38,564 nt of DNA, taken from a bacterium (GTDB taxonomy: Bacteria; Eisenbacteria; RBG-16-71-46). Each line of letters opens with the position of its first letter. The first letter of the stretch is position 1. A model generated the notes under the pieces. That model saw only the letters and a list, made by a program, of their open reading frames with translations, ran no database searches and was not told the origin of the DNA. Positions 1,216-33,628 of the stretch are shown here, in pieces. The position numbers were made by a program, and so were the translations under genes. The stretch covers positions 1 through 38,564 of the forward strand of contig JAYWEM010000106.1 of the NCBI GenBank assembly GCA_043779265.1, given 5' to 3'.

Positions 1216-2220
1216 ATGCGCACTCTCATCGCCCTGCTGACGCTGCTGCTCGCCGGAGCGCCCACCGCGGCTCTGGCCTCCGGACCCGTCGCCCCCTCTG
1301 CCGCACTCGCCAAGCTGCGAGCCGATGCCGATTCGCTTCGGCCACTCGTTCGATCGAGCCTGGCGCAGGGCTTCCTCTGGGCGACGGTGGGCCTAAGCCC
1401 CAAGTCGGCTCGCACGGTGTGGCGTGACTCCTCGCGCACGACGTGGTGGAACGATCGCGATGCGCGTGCGCTGCCGGACTCCGTTCTCTCCCGGCTCATC
1501 TCGCGCCCGCTCGACGAGACCTACTTCTGGAACACGCGCTACGGCTCGCCACTCGCCTATGCGCGGGCGCTCGAGGTTGCCGCTGCCCACGGCTTCACGA
1601 CGTTCGTGGACAAGCGAGTCGCCGATTTCGGCTGCGGCATGGTGGGGCAGCTTCAGCTGATGGCCTCGCTCGGAGCGGATGCGGTGGGGATCGACGTCGA
1701 TGCCTCGCTGCGCGCGCTCTACAGCGAGCCCGGTGATCTGGGCAAGATGGGCCGCGGGCGTGTGCGATTGGCGATCGGGCAGTGGCCGGCCGATGAATCC
1801 GTGCGGAGCGAGGTGGGCGAGGGCCTCGACCTGTTCCTCTCCAAGAACACGCTCAAGAATGGCTACCTGCATCCGGCAGAACCGGTCGAGCCGCGCATGC
1901 GGGTGCACCTCGGCGTCAGCGACAGCGCGTTCGTCGCGCAACTCGCTCGCAGCGTCAGGCGAGGCGGGCTGGTCGTGATCTACAACCTGTCGCCCGCGCC
2001 CGCGCCGCCCGGCAAGCCCTACATCCCGTGGGCCGACGGCCGCTGCCCGTTCCCGCGCGAGATGTGGGAGGCGAGTGGCTTCGAGGTGCTCACGTTCGAT
2101 GAGGACGATGGCCCGGCGGCCCGCGCCATGGGCCATGCACTCGGCTGGGATGCGGGCGAGTCGGGCATGAAGCTCGAGACCGACCTCTTCGCGCTCACGA
2201 GTGTGTTCCGACGGCGCTGA
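1216..2220 (+). CDS. Signal-peptide-bearing protein with a class I SAM-methyltransferase-like fold
   Basis: ATG at 1216 begins the signal peptide MRTLIALLTLLLAGAPTAALA. Motif I-like VADFGCG and motif II-like AVGIDVD. Confidence 0.55.
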   Translation: MRTLIALLTLLLAGAPTAALASGPVAPSAALAKLRADADSLRPLVRSSLAQGFLWATVGLSPKSARTVWRDSSRTTWWNDRDARALPDSVLSRLISRPLDETYFWNTRYGSPLAYARALEVAAAHGFTTFVDKRVADFGCGMVGQLQLMASLGADAVGIDVDASLRALYSEPGDLGKMGRGRVRLAIGQWPADESVRSEVGEGLDLFLSKNTLKNGYLHPAEPVEPRMRVHLGVSDSAFVAQLARSVRRGGLVVIYNLSPAPAPPGKPYIPWADGRCPFPREMWEASGFEVLTFDEDDGPAARAMGHALGWDAGESGMKLETDLFALTSVFRRR

Positions 2221-24661: not shown

Positions 24662-25909
24662 ATGAGTGAGACTCGAGAGCGGGTGTTCATCACGGGCGCG
24701 GGCGTTCTATCGCCGGTGGGGAACAACCTGGAAGACAGTTGGAAGAACCTGGTCGCGGGAGTCTCCGGGGCCGGGCCGATCACGCGTTTCGATGCGAGCG
24801 AGTACGACACCCGCTTCGCCTGCGAGGTGAAGGACTTCTCGTTCGAAGGCGTGCTCGAACGCAAGGAGGCGAAGCGGATGGATCGCTTCGTCCAGTTCGC
24901 CGTCGTCGCCAGCCACGAGGCTGTGAAGCACTCCGGCATCGACCTGGCCGCGACCGACCTCGACCGTTTCGGTGTGATCATCGGGTCGGGCATCGGCGGA
25001 ATGGAGACGTTCGAGGAGCAGCATCGCAACCTCCTCGAGAAGGGGCATCGACGCGTCAGCCCGTTCTTCATCCCGATGATGATCTCCGACATGGCGGCGG
25101 GACAGGTGTCGATCAGTTTCGGCCTGCGCGGCCCGAACTTCGCCACCGTTTCGGCCTGCGCCTCCGGCGCACATGCGATCGGCGAGGCGCTGCGACTCCT
25201 GCGCGCCGGCGATGCCGACGTGTTCCTTGCGGGCGGTGCCGAGGCCACGATCACGCCGATGGCCGTCTCGGGCTTCGGCAACATGCGCGCCCTCTCGACG
25301 CGCAACGATGACCCGCTTCGCGCCAGTCGGCCTTTCGATCGCACGCGCGACGGCTTCGTTGTCGGTGAGGGCGCCGGCATCGTCGTGCTGGAGACCGAGT
25401 CGCACGCCCGTCGCCGCGGAGCGACGCTGATCGCCGAACTCGTCGGCTACGGCGCGTCCGGAGACGCGTTCCACATGACGTCGCCCTGTGCCGACGGCGA
25501 TGGTGCCGCGCGTGCCATGCGGCGAGCGCTGCAGGACGGTGGGTTGGCCCCGGAGCAGATCGGCTACATCAACTCCCATGGCACCTCGACCCCGACCGGC
25601 GATCCCATCGAGGTCACGGCCGTGAAGACGGTGTTCGGCGAGCATGCGAAGCGCTTGATGATGGGCTCGACCAAGTCGATGACCGGGCATCTGCTCGGGG
25701 CTGCCGGCGGGCTCGAGGCCATCATCACGGCACTCACGCTGGAACGCGGCGTCGTTCCGCCCACGGTCCATCTGGACGAGCCGGATCCCGCCTGTGACCT
25801 CGACTTCATCCCGGGCGAGGCGCGGTCGGTGCGACTGGAGGCGGCCCTGTCGAACTCATTCGGATTCGGCGGTCACAACGTGACGCTCGCCCTGAAGGCG
25901 GTCCGATGA
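24662..25909 (+). CDS. fabF: Beta-ketoacyl-ACP synthase II
   Basis: RVFITG.G, MDRFVQF, SACASG (Cys), HGTST, KSMTGHLLGA, SNSFGFGGHN. Confidence 0.97.
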   Translation: MSETRERVFITGAGVLSPVGNNLEDSWKNLVAGVSGAGPITRFDASEYDTRFACEVKDFSFEGVLERKEAKRMDRFVQFAVVASHEAVKHSGIDLAATDLDRFGVIIGSGIGGMETFEEQHRNLLEKGHRRVSPFFIPMMISDMAAGQVSISFGLRGPNFATVSACASGAHAIGEALRLLRAGDADVFLAGGAEATITPMAVSGFGNMRALSTRNDDPLRASRPFDRTRDGFVVGEGAGIVVLETESHARRRGATLIAELVGYGASGDAFHMTSPCADGDGAARAMRRALQDGGLAPEQIGYINSHGTSTPTGDPIEVTAVKTVFGEHAKRLMMGSTKSMTGHLLGAAGGLEAIITALTLERGVVPPTVHLDEPDPACDLDFIPGEARSVRLEAALSNSFGFGGHNVTLALKAVR

Positions 25910-27441
25910 GCACACGCGCTCGCCGTCGCGGCGGGCGTGGACGCCGACGCACTCCGCATGCTGCGCCCCCGCCCCGCCCCACCTTCTGGCAGAAGGTGCT
26001 CGCGTTCTTCGGCGCGAAGCGCAAGTCGAGCGCCGGGCGGCTGAAGCGGGGCCCCGATGCGGCTGATGTCCAGGAGAGTCGCGTGTTCCGGGAGTTCTCG
26101 AATCAGTTCGGGATCCCGTTCAAGGATATCGCGCTGTTGAAGCTCGCCCTGACCCATCGCTCCTACCTGAGTGTCACCGGTCAGAGCGCGCGCGAGTCGA
26201 ACGAGCGCCTCGAGTTCCTCGGTGACTCCGTGCTGGGCCTGGTCACGAGCGAGTTCCTGTACCGGCGGCACCCGGACGAGCATGAAGGGCACCTGACCAA
26301 GGTGAAGTCCCTGCTCGTCTCCAAGGCGATCCTGTCGCGCCGCGCGCTCAAGATGGGGTTGGGGCGCTACGTCCTGATGAGTCGCAGCGAGGTCGAATCG
26401 GGCGGGCGTCAGAGGCTCAGCATCATCGCCGACGCGTTCGAATCCGTCCTCGGCGCGATCTACCTGGACCAGGGTTTCGAGGTCGCTCGCCGATTCATCC
26501 ACGAGCATCTGCTCACGGATGCGGATGACATCGTCGCGGACAAACGACACACGAACTACAAGAGCCACCTTCAGGAGTATGTGCAGAGCACGTACCGCAC
26601 GCATCCCGTCTATCGCATCCGGAGCGAGTACGGCCCGGACCACTCCAAGTACTTCATGGTCGAGGTCATGGTCGGCCGCCGCATGCTGGGCGAGGGCCGT
26701 GGCCACAACAAGAAGGAAGCCGAACAGGCCGCGGCGCGCGACGCCATCGAGCGCGTGACCGAGCTCCGCCGCGGAGCCAGCGAAGGACGCCGGGACGAGC
26801 ACGACCCTGTCGAGGAGCGCGAGCCCGAGGATCTCGACGACTCACCACCGTCTCCTTCTGAGGAGGACGAGCATGAGTCGGGTGATGACTCGCGAGGCAG
26901 CCGGCGCAGACGTGGCGGCCGTGGTCGCTCGCGGCGCGAACGCGGCTCGGAGCGTCATGGAAGTGGCGCTGGACGCGGTGACGAGGAGGCTGAGTGCGAG
27001 CTCGAACTGGCCGAGGAGGCGGAGGCTCGCGGCGAAGTCCCCGTCGAGCCTTCGGCTCGCGAGGACGATGAGCACGAGCCGGTGGCTCGGCCTGACGACC
27101 CGGACGCCGAACTGGATGAGCCGGTCGAGGGGTTCGTGGCGCGGCGGAGGCCCGAGGCCGAGGAGCCTGCGATCATGGCGTTGCCCGCTCGATCGTTCGG
27201 GCGCGGTCGTCGCGCCGGGCGAACCGCGGCCCCGACTCAGGCCCCCGAGCCCTCGGCGGCCGAGGAGGAGCGCCACGTCGACCCCTTCGCCCTTGCCGAG
27301 GTCGCAGCGGAAGCAGCCAGCGAACCCGCCGAGCCTGCCGAGAGAGATGCTGACAAGGAGGCGCTCATCGATGAGATGGAGCGCGCCATGGAGAACTTCG
27401 GCAGGCGCTCGAGTTCGACGCGGAGACGACGCAGCCGCTGA
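25906..27441 (+). CDS. rnc: Ribonuclease III with an N-terminal Arg-rich/amphipathic extension and a ~225-aa charged low-complexity C-terminal tail
   Basis: ATGA overlap with fabF. ALTHRS, NERLEFLGDSVL, ADAFESVLGAIYLDQG; dsRBD NYKSHLQE...KKEAEQAAA. Confidence 0.93.
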   Translation: MSTRARRRGGRGRRRTPHAAPPPRPTFWQKVLAFFGAKRKSSAGRLKRGPDAADVQESRVFREFSNQFGIPFKDIALLKLALTHRSYLSVTGQSARESNERLEFLGDSVLGLVTSEFLYRRHPDEHEGHLTKVKSLLVSKAILSRRALKMGLGRYVLMSRSEVESGGRQRLSIIADAFESVLGAIYLDQGFEVARRFIHEHLLTDADDIVADKRHTNYKSHLQEYVQSTYRTHPVYRIRSEYGPDHSKYFMVEVMVGRRMLGEGRGHNKKEAEQAAARDAIERVTELRRGASEGRRDEHDPVEEREPEDLDDSPPSPSEEDEHESGDDSRGSRRRRGGRGRSRRERGSERHGSGAGRGDEEAECELELAEEAEARGEVPVEPSAREDDEHEPVARPDDPDAELDEPVEGFVARRRPEAEEPAIMALPARSFGRGRRAGRTAAPTQAPEPSAAEEERHVDPFALAEVAAEAASEPAEPAERDADKEALIDEMERAMENFGRRSSSTRRRRSR

Positions 27442-27485: not shown

Positions 27486-27667
27486 AAGCAGAACGGGGGA
27501 CCGTTTCCGGTCCCCCGCTCGCAAGCTGCCGCCACATACGATCAGGACATGGCCCCTCGGAACTTTCCTTGCCCTTTCACATAGTGGCGACAGTCCGATA
27601 GCGCCCGAAGGCGCGTCATGATCATCGTCACGTCAGTCCGATACGTCTTCTGCATCATCCCGACAGG
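27486..27667 (-). ncRNA. Putative sigma54-dependent structured small RNA (~180 nt)
   Basis: Bounded by a -24/-12 promoter (27678-27694) and a GAAA-capped hairpin (27491-27520). Contains a cUUCGg hairpin (27601-27614) and a long stem (27584-27593 with 27526-27535). Ends approximate. Confidence 0.55.
27491..27520 (-). terminator. Terminator-like hairpin between rnc and the minus-strand transcript
   Basis: Minus strand GAGCGGGGGACCG-GAAA-CGGTCCCCCGTTC followed by TGCTTAT (weak U-tract). Confidence 0.65.
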
Positions 27668-27677
27668 CAAACACCTC

Positions 27678-27694
27678 TGCATGTGGTGTGCCAG
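27678..27694 (-). promoter_or_regulatory. sigma54 (-24/-12) promoter
   Basis: Minus strand CTGGCACACCACATGCA = TGGCAC-N5-ATGCA with exact GG-N10-GC spacing (consensus TGGCAC-N5-TTGC). Confidence 0.7.
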
Positions 27695-27894
27695 TCCGAG
27701 TGGCGTGCCCGGTTTTCAGTTCGAACGTTGCGATATAACGCTTTAGCGATGTCCACGCATGTGAAGCATGGATTCGTGGTCAGATCCATCCGGACAAGAT
27801 GTCCGCTTCGATCGAGTCGTTGCGATTACGCCATGTCGCAACTGCAAGCAGTCGTTGAAATTAGCTGCGGTGGACGCATCGACTGGCGCAAAGG

Positions 27895-29295
27895 TCAGAA
27901 TGTCCCATCTGCAGGCTCATCCGACGAGACCTCGGCCGCGAAACGTTGGAGCGTCTTGCGCGAGATGCCGAGGACCTTGGCCGCCTCGCTCTGGTTGCCC
28001 TTCGCGTGCTCGAGCACGCGTCGGATGTAGCGGTCGCGCCAGATCTTGAGCGTCGGCAGCTCGGCGTCCTCGATCGACGGACTCGCGGTGCCGAGGTCGG
28101 AGGGCGACCCCACCAGGCGCAGCATCTCGGTCGTCACGGCGCCTGCGCCGGAACTGGCGAGCTGCGCGGCGCGCTGCATGACGTTCTCCAATTCCCGGAC
28201 ATTGCCCTTCCAACGGTGCACAAGGAGGGCTTCCATCGCCGATGGAGCGATGCGCGGGGGGATCTCGCGCCCGAGGCGGCGCGAGTAACGCGCCAGGAAG
28301 AACCTCGCGAGGCTGGGGATGTCCCCCTGCCGCTCCCGCAGCGGGGGCAGCGTGATCTCGACGACCGCGACGCGGAAGAAGAGGTCCTCGCGGAATGTCC
28401 GGTCGACGACCATCTGGCGGAGGTTGCGGTTCGTTGCGCAGATCAGGCGCACATCGACCGGGATCTCCTCGTTGGCTCCGACGCGCTTGACGCGCTGTTC
28501 CTGGAGCACGCGTAGCAGCTTGGCCTGCACGGGCAGCTCGAGTTCGCCGATCTCGTCGAGGAAGAGGCTCCCGCCCGAGGCCTGCTCGAACAAGCCGACG
28601 CGATCCTGCTGGGCCCCCGTAAAGGCGCCACGCATATGCCCGAACAGCTCGCTCTCGGCGAGCCCGCGTACGATCGAGGCGACATTGGAGACGACGAACG
28701 GCATCGCCTTTCGAGCACTCTGCTCGTGGATCATGCGCGCCACGAGTTCCTTACCGGTGCCATTCTCACCCAGCACCAGCGCACTCGCGTCGCCTCTCGC
28801 GTAACGGCTGACATCCTTGAACGTCTGCAGCATCGCCTTCGAGCTGCCGACGATCTCACGGAGGCCGTGAGTGGCGACCTCGCTCGGATCGGGCCAGTCG
28901 ATCTCCTCCTCGGGTTCGCGCATCACCCGGTGTGCTTCGATGGCCTGTTTCAGCAGCAGTCCGAGTTCGATGCGGTCGACTGGCTTGCTGAGGTAGTCGT
29001 AGGCACCTTTCGTCATCGCGCTCATGGCATCGGGGATGTTGGCGTCCCCGGTGATCAGCACGACCGGGACGTCGCCTCGACGCTCACGAAGTCGACTCAA
29101 CAGGTCGAAACCGCCCAGGCCCCGCATCTTGACGTCCGAGAGCACCACATCGAAGTGGCGCTGATCGAACTTCTCGAGCGCTTCCTCGACGCTATGGGCC
29201 TCGTCGGTCAGGTGACCGAACGTGCGCGTCATGGCGGCAAGCGCACGGGCGACGATCTCCTGATCATCGACCACGAGTACCGAGGTGGAGGGCAT
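27895..29295 (-). CDS. NtrC-family sigma54-dependent response regulator (REC-AAA+-Fis HTH)
   Basis: VLVVDDQ, VVLSDVKM, GAYDYLSKP, GENGTGKE, ESELFGH..GAFTGA, FLDEIGE, FREDLFFR, WKGNVRELEN, GNQSEAAKVLGISRKTL. Start placed at ATG 29295. Confidence 0.96.
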   Translation of the reverse strand: MPSTSVLVVDDQEIVARALAAMTRTFGHLTDEAHSVEEALEKFDQRHFDVVLSDVKMRGLGGFDLLSRLRERRGDVPVVLITGDANIPDAMSAMTKGAYDYLSKPVDRIELGLLLKQAIEAHRVMREPEEEIDWPDPSEVATHGLREIVGSSKAMLQTFKDVSRYARGDASALVLGENGTGKELVARMIHEQSARKAMPFVVSNVASIVRGLAESELFGHMRGAFTGAQQDRVGLFEQASGGSLFLDEIGELELPVQAKLLRVLQEQRVKRVGANEEIPVDVRLICATNRNLRQMVVDRTFREDLFFRVAVVEITLPPLRERQGDIPSLARFFLARYSRRLGREIPPRIAPSAMEALLVHRWKGNVRELENVMQRAAQLASSGAGAVTTEMLRLVGSPSDLGTASPSIEDAELPTLKIWRDRYIRRVLEHAKGNQSEAAKVLGISRKTLQRFAAEVSSDEPADGTF

Positions 29296-29370
29296 ACCGA
29301 GGGCTCCTGTCGGTGGGGTTGTGGGACATGTAACACGCTGGAGAACCTGCATGCTAGGCTCACCCCTCAC

Positions 29371-31035
29371 ATGAAGCCCACCCTGCTGCTTTTCCTGCTG
29401 CTGGCCGTGGCTCCCGTGACTCCCTGCGCTGGCTCGCCCCCCGAGCGGGAGGGGCCGCGGGAGGAGACGATCCGGCACTACCTCGCGGGTCGTTGGCTGG
29501 AGCGCGCGGGGGATCGTGATGGCGCCCTTGCCGAGTATTCGCGGGCCCTGGCCGCCACTCCGGACGACGCTGGGGTCCTGTTGCGCCTGGCCGAGCTCTC
29601 GACCCACGACGGTCAGCCCCTGCGTACGATCGACTATGCCGATCGGGTTCTGGCGATCGACAGTTCGGCCGCACGAGCCCATTGGCTGCGCGGTGCCGCG
29701 CTTTTCCAGTTGAGGCGGACCGAGGAGGCCTACCTCGCGCTGGAGCGGGCGGCCATCCACGGCGCCGACCAGCCCGAGATCCTCAGGACCCTCGCCCGGG
29801 TCGCCGAGTCTCTCTCCCGGACGGAGCGCGTGGCGCAAGTCTATGCGCAGATCTCCGGCGTCGAGCCCGAAGATGCCGAGGCTTGGTTCCAGCGCGCCGC
29901 CTCCGAGGCGCGACTCGGCCGATTCGCTCTCGCCGACTCACTGCTCGCTCGCTCGCTCGTGCTCGATCCGATCCGCCCGGGCGCGATCTTCCTTCGGGCA
30001 TGGGTGCACGAGAATCTCGGGCGGCTCGAGTCCTCCATCGCCGACTACCGGCAGCACTTGCAGGTGCACGTGCAGGACGATCCGACGAGGCGGCGCGTCG
30101 TGATGCTGCTCGCGCGTTCCGGCCGGATGGAGGAGGCGCTCTCGGCGGCGCGTGAGGTGGCGGAGGCCTCACCCCTTGATCCCGAGGCGTTGGTCGTGCT
30201 CGCCGATCTCGCGTACGCGAAGGGCCGTACGCGAGATGGGGCCGACGCGCTTCGCCGGATGCGAGGCACGGCACCCGACGACCCGCGACTTGTCGCGCGC
30301 AGCATCGGCGTGCTGGCGCGGCATCAGCGTCGACGAGAGGGGATCGAATTGGCGGATGCCTGGGTGAGGCGGCAGAAAGCCGAGCCGGATGCCCTGCTGC
30401 TGGCTGCTCGCGCTCATGCCGCCCTCGGGGATGCCGCGGGCGCCGCGACGCTGGCTCGACGTGCCGCGAAGGCGAGCCCCGATTCCCTCTCGATTCGCCG
30501 ACTGCTGGCGCGCGTCCTCGAGGAGGCCGGCCGGCCGGAGGAGGCCGAGGCGGAGTTCCGCTCACTGCGCCAGCGCTGGCCTACGGATATCGGCGTGCTC
30601 CTGGACCTGGGATCGCTGCGCGAGCGACGTGGCGACCTCGATGGCGCCGTCGGGGCCGGTCGGGAGGCGCTCACCTTGCGGCCCGAGGCGCATGAAGCGC
30701 AGAACTTCCTCGGCTATCTGCTCGCCGATCGCGGCCGCGACCTCGAACAGGCGCTGGCGCTGATCCGCAGCGCCCTCGAGGCCGACCCGGACAATGGCGC
30801 GTACGTGGATTCGTATGGCTGGGTGCTGTTCCGACTCGGCCGCCTCGAGGAAGCGCGCGTCCAGCTCGAACGCGCGCTCGCGCTGACGGGTGGCGATCCG
30901 GTCATCCACGAGCATCTGGGTGACGTGTACACCGCCCTGAGCCTCGCCGAGCGGGCGCGCGAGCAGTACCAGTTGAGCCTCGCTGCCGACTCCGGCAATG
31001 CCCGGGTGCGCGCCAAGCTGCAGGGGGCGCGGTGA
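29371..31035 (+). CDS. Exported tetratricopeptide-repeat protein
   Basis: Signal peptide MKPTLLLFLLLAVAP; many TPR units; conserved tail NFLGYLLADRG...DPDNGAYVDSYGWVLFRLG...DPVIHEHLGDVY. Confidence 0.88.
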   Translation: MKPTLLLFLLLAVAPVTPCAGSPPEREGPREETIRHYLAGRWLERAGDRDGALAEYSRALAATPDDAGVLLRLAELSTHDGQPLRTIDYADRVLAIDSSAARAHWLRGAALFQLRRTEEAYLALERAAIHGADQPEILRTLARVAESLSRTERVAQVYAQISGVEPEDAEAWFQRAASEARLGRFALADSLLARSLVLDPIRPGAIFLRAWVHENLGRLESSIADYRQHLQVHVQDDPTRRRVVMLLARSGRMEEALSAAREVAEASPLDPEALVVLADLAYAKGRTRDGADALRRMRGTAPDDPRLVARSIGVLARHQRRREGIELADAWVRRQKAEPDALLLAARAHAALGDAAGAATLARRAAKASPDSLSIRRLLARVLEEAGRPEEAEAEFRSLRQRWPTDIGVLLDLGSLRERRGDLDGAVGAGREALTLRPEAHEAQNFLGYLLADRGRDLEQALALIRSALEADPDNGAYVDSYGWVLFRLGRLEEARVQLERALALTGGDPVIHEHLGDVYTALSLAERAREQYQLSLAADSGNARVRAKLQGAR

Positions 31036-31097
31036 CGCGGATCGGCCAGGTCGTTGTGCGGGAGGGGTTTGTCGCTGGCCGACCGCTCCTCGGCGCG

Positions 31098-31125
31098 GGA
31101 ACCCGCCGACCGGTCCGGGGTATTA
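31098..31125 (+). promoter_or_regulatory. Candidate autoregulatory ECF promoter
   Basis: GGAACC-N16-GTATTA about 18 bp upstream of the ECF sigma ATG; fits the AAC/-35 and GT/-10 pattern of ECF promoters. Confidence 0.45.
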
Positions 31126-31143
31126 CAAGAGTGAGGCCGCCCC

Positions 31144-31770
31144 ATGGCTCCGGATCGTGAACCCCAGCTGCCCGCTCCACTGAGCCTCAGCGATGAGGAT
31201 CTCATGGCGAGGGTGGCGGAGGACGATGAGCGCGCGTTCCGCGAGCTCGTCAGTCGATTCCAGGGCCGTTTGGGCAGCCTCGTCCGCCGCATCCTCAATG
31301 ACAGCGAGGCGGTGGACGACCTGACCCAGGAAGTGTTCGTTCGCATCTTCGTCCATCGACGCAACTACCGCCGCGGTTCGAAGTTCTCGACCTGGGCGTT
31401 CACGATCGCCGCGAATCTCGCGAAGAACGAGATCCGACGTCGCGTGCGCCGCCGCAACTGGTTCTCGTTGGACGCGCTGACCGATATCTATCACGACAGC
31501 ATGCCGCAGCTCGCAGACCGCACCGAGACCCGTGAGCACACGCTCGAACGAGAGCAGCTCCAGGGCGAGGTGGGGAAGGCCATCGCCACGTTGCCGGAGA
31601 CGTTCCGGCTGGCCCTGGTCCTGCGGGACATCGAAGGGTTGTCCTACGAGGAGATCGCAGAAGTGCTCGGCGTTCCGGGCGGCACGGTGAGATCACGCAT
31701 CAACCGCGCCCGCTCGATGCTCGAGCACAGACTCCAACCACTGCTACCCGAACGGGATGGTGCATCATGA
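31144..31770 (+). CDS. ECF sigma factor (RpoE/SigW-like)
   Basis: DDLTQEVFVRIF, KFSTWAFTIA.NLAKN, LRDIEGLSYEEIAEVLGVPGGTVRSRINRAR. Confidence 0.94.
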   Translation: MAPDREPQLPAPLSLSDEDLMARVAEDDERAFRELVSRFQGRLGSLVRRILNDSEAVDDLTQEVFVRIFVHRRNYRRGSKFSTWAFTIAANLAKNEIRRRVRRRNWFSLDALTDIYHDSMPQLADRTETREHTLEREQLQGEVGKAIATLPETFRLALVLRDIEGLSYEEIAEVLGVPGGTVRSRINRARSMLEHRLQPLLPERDGAS

Positions 31771-32369
31771 GAAGCTGTCCGCAGGCACGCCATCTTTTCA
31801 GTGCCTACTGGGACGACGAGATCACGCAGGGCGAGCGCGACTGGCTCGACTCGCATCTCGCCGGTTGTGAGGGCTGCCGCGCCTCGTACAATCGGTATGC
31901 GCAGACACTCGAGGCGGTGGGCACGCTTCCGCGGCCCGAGATGGCCGTGGATCTGGCGGAGCGCGCGCTCGGCGAGGCGAAGCGCCGTCAGCGCGTGCCG
32001 GATGTGCTCGCGCAACCACAGCGCCCGACCTGGCAGCCGGTCGCGGCCGCAGCGAGTCTGGCGCTCGTCGCGCTGACCAGCATGATGCTTCTTCGCGCTC
32101 CGGGACCCTCGTCGTCTTCCGTGGCGCTCGAGAGGCCGGTCGAGCAGCCGAGGCTCGTCTCGGTCGACATACCCATGGGCTCGAGCCTCACGACTCCGGA
32201 GTCGGACGCTCATCGGGGAGTCGTCTCGAGTTCGGCATCCGACAGCTTGTTCGATCACACCGCGGACGTGGAGTTCATCCTCGATCCGGTCACGCTCCGC
32301 CGCGGCCGTGCCCACACGGCCCGTCTTCCCGACGGCGTCCAGGGTGAGCAGGCGCTGATCTCGTTCTGA
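31767..32369 (+). CDS. Zinc-finger (zf-HC2/ZAS) transmembrane anti-sigma factor
   Basis: ATGA overlap. C...SAYWDDE...HLAGCEGC (HxxxCxxC); TM VAAAASLALVALTSMMLL. Confidence 0.88.
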   Translation: MRSCPQARHLFSAYWDDEITQGERDWLDSHLAGCEGCRASYNRYAQTLEAVGTLPRPEMAVDLAERALGEAKRRQRVPDVLAQPQRPTWQPVAAAASLALVALTSMMLLRAPGPSSSSVALERPVEQPRLVSVDIPMGSSLTTPESDAHRGVVSSSASDSLFDHTADVEFILDPVTLRRGRAHTARLPDGVQGEQALISF

Positions 32370-32383
32370 CCGCAGGGGGTGGC

Positions 32384-33628
32384 TTGAGGCGACGCACGAA
32401 CGCGCACTTGGCGCTCATCGCCCGCTTCCTCACGGGAGCGGGCCGTGGCGTAAGCGTGCTGGCGCTCCTGCTGGGCTCGCTCCTCATTTCGGTCGAGCCG
32501 ATCCGGGCCCAGGGCGCACTGTCGGCGATCGAGACGGACGTCGATCGGATCGCCCGGCGAACGCGGCCGAGCATCGTCACGGTGTTCGCGCAGCGACAGG
32601 TCACCACCACGGAGGCCGGCCGAACGACGCAGACCCGCACACACAGCCGAGTCGGCAGTGGCGTCGCGATCGAGCGCTCCGAGATCCTGACCACCGCGAG
32701 CGTCGTGCTCGGCGCCGAGCGCATCTTCGTGCGCACCGACAACGGGCTCCAAGTCGAAGCGAGATTGGCTGCGCTCGATCCCGTGTTCAACGTGGCGCTG
32801 CTCGAAGTCGTCGATCTCCAGCTCCCGGCGCTGCGGCTCGCCAGTCGCCCGCCTCAGCTGGGCGACTGGATCATCGCGCTGGGATCGAGCTATCGCGCCG
32901 CCCCGACGCAGTCGGTCGGAACCGTGGCCTATCGTTTTCAGGAGCCGCGAACCAGCCTGCTGCAGCTGACCAACGAGGTCTATCCGGGCAACAGCGGCGG
33001 TGCTGCGCTCAACTCGCGCGGCGAACTGGTCGGCCTCGTGCAAGGTGAGCTGGGAACGCCCGAGGCGCCCGGCCAGGCGCGCGCCGAGCGACGACCGGGC
33101 GGCATGAGCTTCGTGATCCCGATCGAGGACCTGCTGCCCGTCTATCGCTCGTTCAAGTCCGAGGGTCGATCGCGCCACGGTTTGTTCGGAGTCTCGACTC
33201 GGGCCGCGTTCGTGGACTCCGAGAGTCAGCCCGGAACGCGCATCCCGATCGGGGCTCTCGTCGAATCGGTGGCCCCCGGCGGTCCGGCCGCCAAGCTCGG
33301 GCTGCGCAAGGGGGACCTCATCGTCGCGTTCGACGGCGAGCGCGTCGAGTACCCGGAGCAGTTGGCGCGTTGGGTCTCGCAGACCGCGCCGGGCACGTCC
33401 GTTCGAATCGTCTGGGTTCGAGATGAGTTACAGAAGGAGGGGCGAGTCACGTTGGGCGAGTCACCCGAGACCATCCCGAGTTGGATGTTCCCCGAGGGAC
33501 TCCCGAAGGCCGATGTCCGCCCCGTCGCGACGGCATCGCCTCGTCGCATCGCCGAGATCGAGGATCAGATCCGCCGTCTCTCGAGCGAACTGCAGCGGCT
33601 GAAGGGCCCCGCCGACTCGTCGCGCTGA
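32384..33628 (+). CDS. HtrA/DegP-like trypsin-fold protein with one PDZ domain and a C-terminal coiled coil; catalytic His and Asp substituted
   Basis: PSIVTV, GSGVAI, ILTTASVV, DPVFNVALL, PGNSGG; PDZ VAPGGPAAKLGLRKGDLIVAFDG. Start uncertain. Confidence 0.85.
   Translation: MRRRTNAHLALIARFLTGAGRGVSVLALLLGSLLISVEPIRAQGALSAIETDVDRIARRTRPSIVTVFAQRQVTTTEAGRTTQTRTHSRVGSGVAIERSEILTTASVVLGAERIFVRTDNGLQVEARLAALDPVFNVALLEVVDLQLPALRLASRPPQLGDWIIALGSSYRAAPTQSVGTVAYRFQEPRTSLLQLTNEVYPGNSGGAALNSRGELVGLVQGELGTPEAPGQARAERRPGGMSFVIPIEDLLPVYRSFKSEGRSRHGLFGVSTRAAFVDSESQPGTRIPIGALVESVAPGGPAAKLGLRKGDLIVAFDGERVEYPEQLARWVSQTAPGTSVRIVWVRDELQKEGRVTLGESPETIPSWMFPEGLPKADVRPVATASPRRIAEIEDQIRRLSSELQRLKGPADSSR

Follow-up and report, generated by a model that had tools for sequence, protein, structure and literature searches.

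Comparative evidence for a rod-shaped non-coding RNA gene beside an NtrC-family activator in one family of Candidatus Eisenbacteria

What is encoded in the gap between the convergent genes for RNase III (rnc) and an NtrC-family σ54 activator on a contig of Candidatus Eisenbacteria, and what might a product of this gap do for the cell? Within the window, i.e. the whole 38,564-nucleotide stretch of DNA analysed, the original prediction had placed a -24/-12 box, a UUCG hairpin, a long stem, a direct repeat and a GAAA-capped hairpin on the minus strand of this gap, all of which are indeed found at these places, and had read them as a structured minus-strand RNA under a σ54 promoter. Comparison with relatives of the source genome bears this out, as promoter, stems and terminator are conserved and covarying, and lends good support to a minus-strand, rod-shaped non-coding RNA gene in one Ca. 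Eisenbacteria family. To judge from its sequences, the Eisenbacteria RNA constitutes a real and apparently undescribed family, which combines a known regulatory layout with an unrelated RNA body.

Structure, conservation and distribution of the predicted RNA

The predicted transcript comprises ~180 nt in the source genome and 109-247 nt across the family (68 elements). While the length originally proposed is thereby retained, comparison points to the 3' ~105 nt, namely rod and terminator, as the conserved and presumably functional unit, and not to the whole ~180 nt. The preceding 5' leader varies between 6 and 145 nt in 68 homologs and is hence regarded as dispensable. Its UUCG hairpin occupies positions 27614-27601 (minus strand), and the two copies of its 10-nt repeat lie at 27643-27634 and 27600-27591 (minus strand; shuffling p about 0.016). 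This repeat occurs in just one of 68 predicted homolog transcripts, that of the source genome, where it seems to stem from 43 nt of the 5' arm having been duplicated locally. Moreover, GGA triplets average 3.76 per predicted transcript as compared to 3.59 in shuffles and are thus not enriched. With the repeat confined to one genome, the leader variable and GGA unenriched, the idea of a protein sponge acting via repeats or GGA triplets fails. The coordinates of all features are compiled in Table 1.

Table 1. Features of the locus, numbered along the window
Feature	Positions	Strand	Remarks
rnc (RNase III), convergent neighbour	25906..27441	+	profile match; locus marker outside the cassette
Terminator-like hairpin	27486..27520	-	GAAA-capped stem 27520-27491; U-tail weak in source genome
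Conserved core, rod-like hairpin	27526..27593	-	~24 bp-equivalents, sequence-conserved basal helix; covariation
Near-invariant apex CCGAGGGGCC	27551..27560	-	exact in 40/41 distinct genome copies
Variable 5' leader with 10-nt repeat and UUCG hairpin	27594..27667	-	not conserved
σ54 -24/-12 promoter	27679..27693	-	predicted +1 at 27667
IHF-like site YAA-N4-TTR	27736..27745	-	52 bp upstream of -24 box
Proximal enhancer, perfect GACA-N3-TGTC	27793..27803	-	110 bp upstream of -24 box
Distal enhancer, GACA-N3-TGTC type with one mismatch	27894..27904	-	211 bp upstream of -24 box
NtrC-family σ54 activator	27895..29295	-	receiver, AAA+ with GAFTGA (translation), Fis-type HTH (domain matches)

Folding of a 191-nt region of the source genome is markedly more stable than that of its shuffles (z -4.9). 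The core reaches -31.5 kcal/mol (z -4.3) on the minus strand versus -17.4 kcal/mol (z -1.7) on the plus strand, while the leader folds at about chance level (z -1.7). The minus strand is taken as the coding strand because the G-U pairs as well as the GNRA and UUCG loops work on it; in the terminator, the loops read on this strand are of the GNRA type in 47 and of the UUCG type in four of 73 sequences. These 73 distinct sequences comprise genome copies and metagenome loci. In their alignment over rod and terminator, which was fitted to a covariance model and includes rows from related kin, 95% of cells are paired, and two-sided changes are seen at 22-23 of the 35 pairs, a degree of covariation exceeding all 500 shuffles and every slid control. 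In the terminator, ten of 11 pairs changed on both sides and 99.5% of cells are paired. The basal stem of the rod (arms 27593-27584 and 27535-27526, minus strand) is extended by two inner helices, and its interchange of U-G and U-A pairs fits an RNA rather than a DNA site. Rod length ranges from 62 to 68 nt, with 64-66 nt in 63 of 73 sequences, and stays fixed while the sequence of the internal loop drifts.

At the apex, invariance was counted in genome copies only, since the metagenome rows had been chosen by the 10-mer itself; the covariance model had been trained on 21 of the copies. In the preferred apex fold, which is favoured in 62 of 64 distinct cores, a GG/CC helix is stacked on the rod, followed by an A-rich bulge and a CC[GAGG]GG cap. 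Indels at the bulged base fit this fold, in which the invariant apex is mostly paired (pair probability 0.77 versus 0.19). An alternative fold forms a GGW/WCC hairpin that frees AGGGGCC, with A-U to U-A changes in four of 73 sequences and C-G to U-G changes in 14. The alignment is compatible with both folds.

The covariance model detects the RNA in 43 of 89 family genomes and never more than once per genome, which marks it as a single-copy element. Among near-complete family genomes 26 of 44 are positive, and 16 of 28 genera are represented. No copy was detected in 111 genomes of other families in a class sample and in 91 genomes of a phylum sample, both being a shallow first look with 26 candidates scored per genome, so that weak homologs outside the family could have been missed; a 150-candidate scan of five negative genomes likewise yielded no RNA. 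A pattern search of metagenomes retrieved 43 further loci, 42 of which score with the covariance model. Out of 36 genome-wide pattern hits, 16, from Streptomyces and others, have no 5' arm and were discarded as matches due to chance. Another hit, titled Saccharimonadaceae, is identical in element sequence to a hit from a family genome and falls among the family members on the rnc tree.

The novelty that the original prediction had linked to an Rfam search is sustained by the lack of any family match: at the gathering score none was obtained across the window, and the RNA region itself gave just two chance matches (E 0.37 and 3.6). The literature searched on Eisenbacteria noncoding or small RNA and σ54 yielded no description of the RNA. 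Among the matches listed for the apex 10-mer none was relevant by title, and those listed for σ54-dependent sRNAs and enhancers did not describe the RNA.

Promoter architecture and the activator-RNA cassette

Of the 69 elements with sufficient upstream sequence, 65 have a -24/-12 box no more than 200 nt from the core, as compared to 2.5% of shuffles, the pattern having been loosened at one position after one case had been seen. Further upstream, comparison of the homologs revealed two palindromic enhancer sites of the consensus GSGACA-N3-TGTCSC, neither of which was part of the original prediction. The proximal site lies 95-140 bp upstream of the -24/-12 box in 52 of 65 homologs and the distal one 185-228 bp upstream in 56 of 65, whereas such sites occur in 1.3% of shuffles, motif and windows being drawn from the same data. 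Within these windows the distances amount to about 110-125 and 190-215 bp, with tight bunching at 110-125 and 210-215 bp. The distal site overlaps the stop codon of the activator gene. An IHF-like site is present in 29 of 65 homologs, in 27 of them at 48-54 bp, and in 2.7% of shuffles. In the source genome, both enhancers accompany only one of 431 -24/-12 motifs, namely that of the RNA locus, and the longer enhancer pattern has nine other intergenic matches, none of which is accompanied by a -24/-12 box at a distance of up to 260 bp. The source-genome IHF-like site partially matches the IHF consensus quoted in PMC3045617, and the succession of enhancer, IHF site and σ54 promoter is a standard one, as described there for glmY, although the enhancer motif differs. 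The TGTCGC/GCGACA half-site of the DNA enhancer recurs in the basal helix of the RNA (27593-27586), either by coincidence or as a possible sign that the RNA feeds back on its activator.

The adjacent activator scores below every named NCBIfam equivalog cut-off shown. It is likely to be the dedicated activator of the RNA, and is assumed to bind the enhancers because of its co-occurrence with the element; rpoN is present in the source genome. No sensor kinase gene flanks the activator, whose neighbours are rnc and a divergent TPR gene. Of the two-component control originally envisaged, the receiver domain thus stands, while the kinase gene beside it does not, so that such control is suggested by the receiver only. 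The rnc ORF encodes 511 aa, of which residues 65-283 are spanned by the RNase III match while the remainder forms a long charged tail. On the other side, the block divergent from the activator (29260-33628, plus strand) is conserved with or without the cassette; it presumably encodes a TPR protein, an ECF sigma factor, an anti-sigma factor and an HtrA-like protease, resembling an envelope-stress operon.

Where enough flanking DNA is available, the 42 distinct genome elements have the activator on their upstream side in 38 of 39 cases and rnc on their downstream side in 38 of 38. For comparison, 40 regions of genomes lacking the RNA were examined; rnc, which these genomes retain without the cassette, served as anchor for 39 of the regions. 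In all 24 family loci that span the interval from rnc to the TPR gene, activator and RNA are both absent, and the same is true for three spanning loci from other families; the best covariance-model hit among these 27 loci has an E-value of 0.3. Of the remaining 13 regions, five were too short, seven contain rnc without TPR gene or activator, and one is not an rnc locus. The joint absence of activator and RNA indicates one cassette located between rnc and the TPR gene. On a quick rnc tree the cassette label changes ten times, at least three of these changes being forced by strong branches, which fits an ancestral cassette that was lost repeatedly. Since activator and RNA are kept or lost together, the RNA is likely the sole output of this signalling switch.

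The best activator hit was followed in 20 negative genomes, where 18 proved to be paralogs and two to be orthologous loci (G001 and G011). In G001, the contig end cuts the RNA just past an intact promoter. The G011 locus (L105, ~1750-1890, minus strand) features the activator, both enhancers and a diverged rod missed by the model, but no clear -24/-12 box, and may possibly have switched to another sigma factor. In this diverged copy, rod and cap are the same and one apex change preserves a G-U pair. A switch of glmZ to another sigma factor in some enterobacteria is reported in PMC3045617. Conversely, G012 (L098) has kept RNA, promoter and enhancers, while its activator is reduced to an HTH-like remnant ~260-620 nt upstream of the core, so that the cassette is possibly caught in decay. 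The RNA of G012 carries the sole change of the apex 10-mer among 41 genome copies. A candidate for a relocated activator in G012 was dismissed as its HTH differs.

Relation to known regulatory RNAs

The foreseen layout of activator gene, σ54 promoter and sRNA is matched by pxrR-pxr of Myxococcus xanthus, where the gene of an NtrC-like activator is also located immediately upstream (PMC5684412). PMC5684412, PMC5568312 and PMC11928866 describe a ~260-bp spacer with enhancer and σ54 promoter, as in Eisenbacteria, and a clade-restricted RNA of ~108 nt that co-evolves with its activator, like the Eisenbacteria RNA; the direct targets of Pxr are described there as still to be characterized. On the other hand, Pxr folds into a triple stem-loop, whereas the Eisenbacteria RNA consists of one long rod and a terminator and gave no Rfam match at E up to 10. 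Furthermore, the kinase gene pxrK resides beside pxrR, whereas no cognate kinase gene accompanies the Eisenbacteria activator, and the phyla differ.

GlmY of Enterobacteriaceae, which is controlled by GlrR/GlrK (QseF/QseE), likewise possesses a σ54 promoter, palindromic activator sites more than 100 bp upstream and IHF sites (PMC3045617), and its action as a structured RNA decoy for a protein (PMC7073468) is the model preferred here for the Eisenbacteria RNA. However, GlrR sites read TGTC-N10-GACA in place of GACA-N3-TGTC, and the GlrR gene is situated downstream of glmY, in contrast to the upstream position of the Eisenbacteria activator gene. Membership of the GlmY/GlmZ family was rejected, as there is no Rfam match, no RapZ in the source genome and no TGTC-N10-GACA site. 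A further case of such wiring is provided by the gene order cbrB-crcZ. In Pseudomonadaceae, CrcZ is a σ54-dependent sRNA under the two-component activator system CbrA/CbrB (PMC6292655); its six A-rich motifs sequester Hfq-Crc, whereas the Eisenbacteria RNA is a compact hairpin. Affiliation with CrcZ/CrcY was discarded because Hfq was not found in the source genome (92% complete), repeats are not conserved and no Rfam match exists.

Other RNA classes were likewise considered and rejected. A sponge of the CsrB/RsmZ type is contradicted by a mean of 1.4 ANGGA motifs per predicted transcript, the one conserved site being paired. The RNA resembles 6S RNA (RF00013) in forming a long irregular rod, and its apical CCGAG..GCC run bears a faint likeness to the latter; nonetheless, it has no RF00013 match even at E 10 and neither a closing stem nor a central bubble. 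The true 6S RNA resides elsewhere in the source genome (L121 1501-1692, G000:C103) with 45.3 bits, just below the Rfam gathering score, and is flanked by what we take to be zapA-like and rny-like genes. A tmRNA was also found elsewhere. Finally, a Y RNA is at odds with the lack of Ro60 (TROVE family) in all five RNA-positive genomes searched and of any Rfam match.

Taken together, a σ54 promoter, a terminated unit, activator sites, an intact bEBP and rpoN are all found, which suggests that the RNA belongs to the class of σ54-dependent, bEBP-driven sRNAs. It shares the wiring of pxrR-pxr, GlrR-glmY and CbrB-crcZ and is a member of none of these by sequence, structure or partner.

Possible mode of action and significance

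The RNA is proposed to be, most likely, a trans-acting small RNA and the dedicated output of an orphan NtrC-family activator. In this model, an unlinked kinase would phosphorylate the activator, with kinase, signal and phosphorylation being postulated. The phosphorylated activator would then bind to the two GSGACA-N3-TGTCSC sites, while IHF would bend the DNA, and σ54 polymerase would start near 27667 and stop at the hairpin near 27490, yielding ~180 nt. Activator, two sites, IHF, σ54-dependent start and hairpin stop are, taken together, considered highly probable on comparative grounds, with the activator remnant of G012 and the absence of a clear -24/-12 box in G011 speaking against this model.

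As judged by conservation, the 64-66-nt rod would be the working unit. Recognised by both its shape and its sequence, it could sequester or recruit a protein, in a GlmY-like manner and not as an Hfq-type pairing RNA; recognition by this protein would rely on two elements set at a constant spacing, namely the invariant CC[GAGG]GG cap and the conserved basal helix. This role as protein-binding decoy or adaptor is tentatively favoured, at slightly less than even chances. It is suggested by the fixed rod length, the sequence-conserved basal helix and the mostly paired invariant cap, as well as by the lack of Hfq in the source genome, of ProQ in five of five RNA-positive genomes and of any shared complementary mRNA site in shallow target searches, which covered exact motifs close to start codons and used gene calls across the entire genome in a single case. 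On the other hand, pairing seeds, too, are classically recognised by an invariant stretch that does not covary, here 10 nt long, and there is some support for the alternative apex fold, in which AGGGGCC is freed.

The main rival, although rather unlikely, is a chaperone-independent base-pairing sRNA with the SD-like, G-rich apex GAGGGGCC as seed. Pairing would nucleate at the GAGG loop, whereupon the apex would flip into the alternative GGW/WCC hairpin, and the targets would be C-rich anti-SD stretches, either in leaders (activation) or beside start codons (repression), of many lineage-specific mRNAs. Such a function agrees with the invariance of the 10-mer and the compatibility of the alignment with both folds, and seed complements upstream of GAGG..ATG are more frequent in the 43 RNA-positive (0.83/Mb) than in 24 verified negative genomes (0.48/Mb). 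However, a permuted control motif is also elevated in the positives (2.46 versus 1.99 per Mb), and the seed-to-control odds ratio amounts to 1.38 (p 0.13) with kin that are not independent. The 32 SD-proximal sites in 30 loci precede non-orthologous genes save for one clear and one weak pair, and most of the seed is engaged in base pairs when the apex adopts its preferred fold. Perfect complements of the 10-mer are missing from the translation-initiation regions of the source genome as delimited by rough gene calls. Within rnc, a complement occurs equally often whether the RNA is present (17 of 32) or absent (11 of 26), and the rnc catalytic-motif complement was discarded as a target, being a codon effect. 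As a separate observation, a gene at L246 1532-1828 (G000:C1) encodes a protein of 99 aa whose flagellar rod C-terminal match is weak (E 3e-4); within the leader of this gene, a stretch complementary to the seed could pair with the gene's own SD.

The protein-ligand reading has to be weighed further against the idea that the rod serves RNase III as a substrate or decoy, or that, as with Pxr, a shorter active RNA is released from it by processing, which is deemed improbable. With ~24 bp-equivalents and an internal loop, the rod is geometrically compatible with an RNase III substrate; its length is fixed, its basal sequence conserved, and the RNA is convergent with rnc in 38 of 38 loci. Yet this synteny reflects one inherited, ancestral locus and is thus not independent evidence for a link to RNase III, and rnc is unchanged where the cassette is missing. 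Moreover, the upper helix comprises only 6-8 bp, and the invariant apex would be left unexplained. Stepwise processing of Pxr by RNase D from longer forms is described in PMC10217877.

Two further proposals invoke CsrA. In the first, with a distinctly low probability, the RNA would act as a two-state switch in a Hfq-less lineage that couples RNA pairing to protein capture via one 65-nt rod: the resting apex would conceal both the SD-like seed and a CA-N-GGA site for CsrA, once anti-SD RNA, in mRNA leaders or at the 3' end of 16S rRNA in free 30S subunits, had paired with the GAGG loop, the apex would flip, and the flipped apex would alter CsrA access, the rod being the only output of the σ54 activator. 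The second, which is quite doubtful, regards the RNA as a single-site CsrA antagonist via CA-N-GGA at the 5' flank of the apex. Of the two regulators considered in the original prediction, csrA is present (83 of 89 family genomes) and Hfq, as stated above, was not found; fliW was not found in the source genome. ANGGA occupies a fixed site in 58 of 73 cores, in 49 as CACGGA, and the C-G and A-U pairs flanking CA-N-GGA resemble CsrA/RsmE sites. Nevertheless, there is one site only, its GG is paired in both folds, and it is lost in 15 of 73 cores, where the change of GGA to GGU is matched by UCC to ACC, a compensation that argues for structure rather than for CsrA. GGA, as mentioned, is without enrichment, and csrA is equally present in RNA-negative genomes.

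Elsewhere in the source genome, an intergenic region (G000:C89:2150-2300, plus strand) harbours seven ANGGA motifs in 150 nt, the highest number among 1726 intergenic strands scanned, and is a candidate for a CsrA-bound leader or a CsrB-like RNA; five such motifs occur at G000:C49:4562-4740. At L049 1501-1978 (G000:C18), csrA is followed by a small ORF without Pfam match, which we presume to be FlgM-like, and by a sensor-kinase-like ORF.

It is very unlikely that no free RNA is made and that the element is instead a DNA element or a part of the activator or rnc mRNA, as a structure in the 3' UTR or a double terminator. Its position between two convergent genes would suit such a role, but a promoter, enhancers and an IHF-like site of its own precede it at constant distances, its polarity is that of the minus strand, as seen from its G-U pairs and GNRA/UUCG loops, and it outlived the activator ORF in G012. 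A small-peptide mRNA is hardly credible, for although a 38-codon ORF runs through the element in the predicted transcript of the source genome, its start codon lies in the non-conserved leader, single-base indels separate the cores (62-68 nt), and changes track base pairs.

The wiring of activator, σ54 promoter and sRNA has already been described in Proteobacteria and myxobacteria, with the body of the Eisenbacteria RNA being unrelated. Since Hfq, RapZ, ProQ and Ro60 were not found in the genomes searched for each of them, the RNA probably uses a partner or mode outside those systems. Beyond the original prediction, the two palindromic enhancers and the activator-RNA cassette are new, and the repeated joint loss of this cassette provides a natural contrast set of 43 positive versus 24 verified negative genomes for finding the partner. 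A barely studied phylum thereby gains an RNA family without Rfam or literature match, together with its promoter, enhancer motif and putative cognate activator, and with all three in hand the circuit could be rebuilt in a laboratory host although the organism is uncultured.
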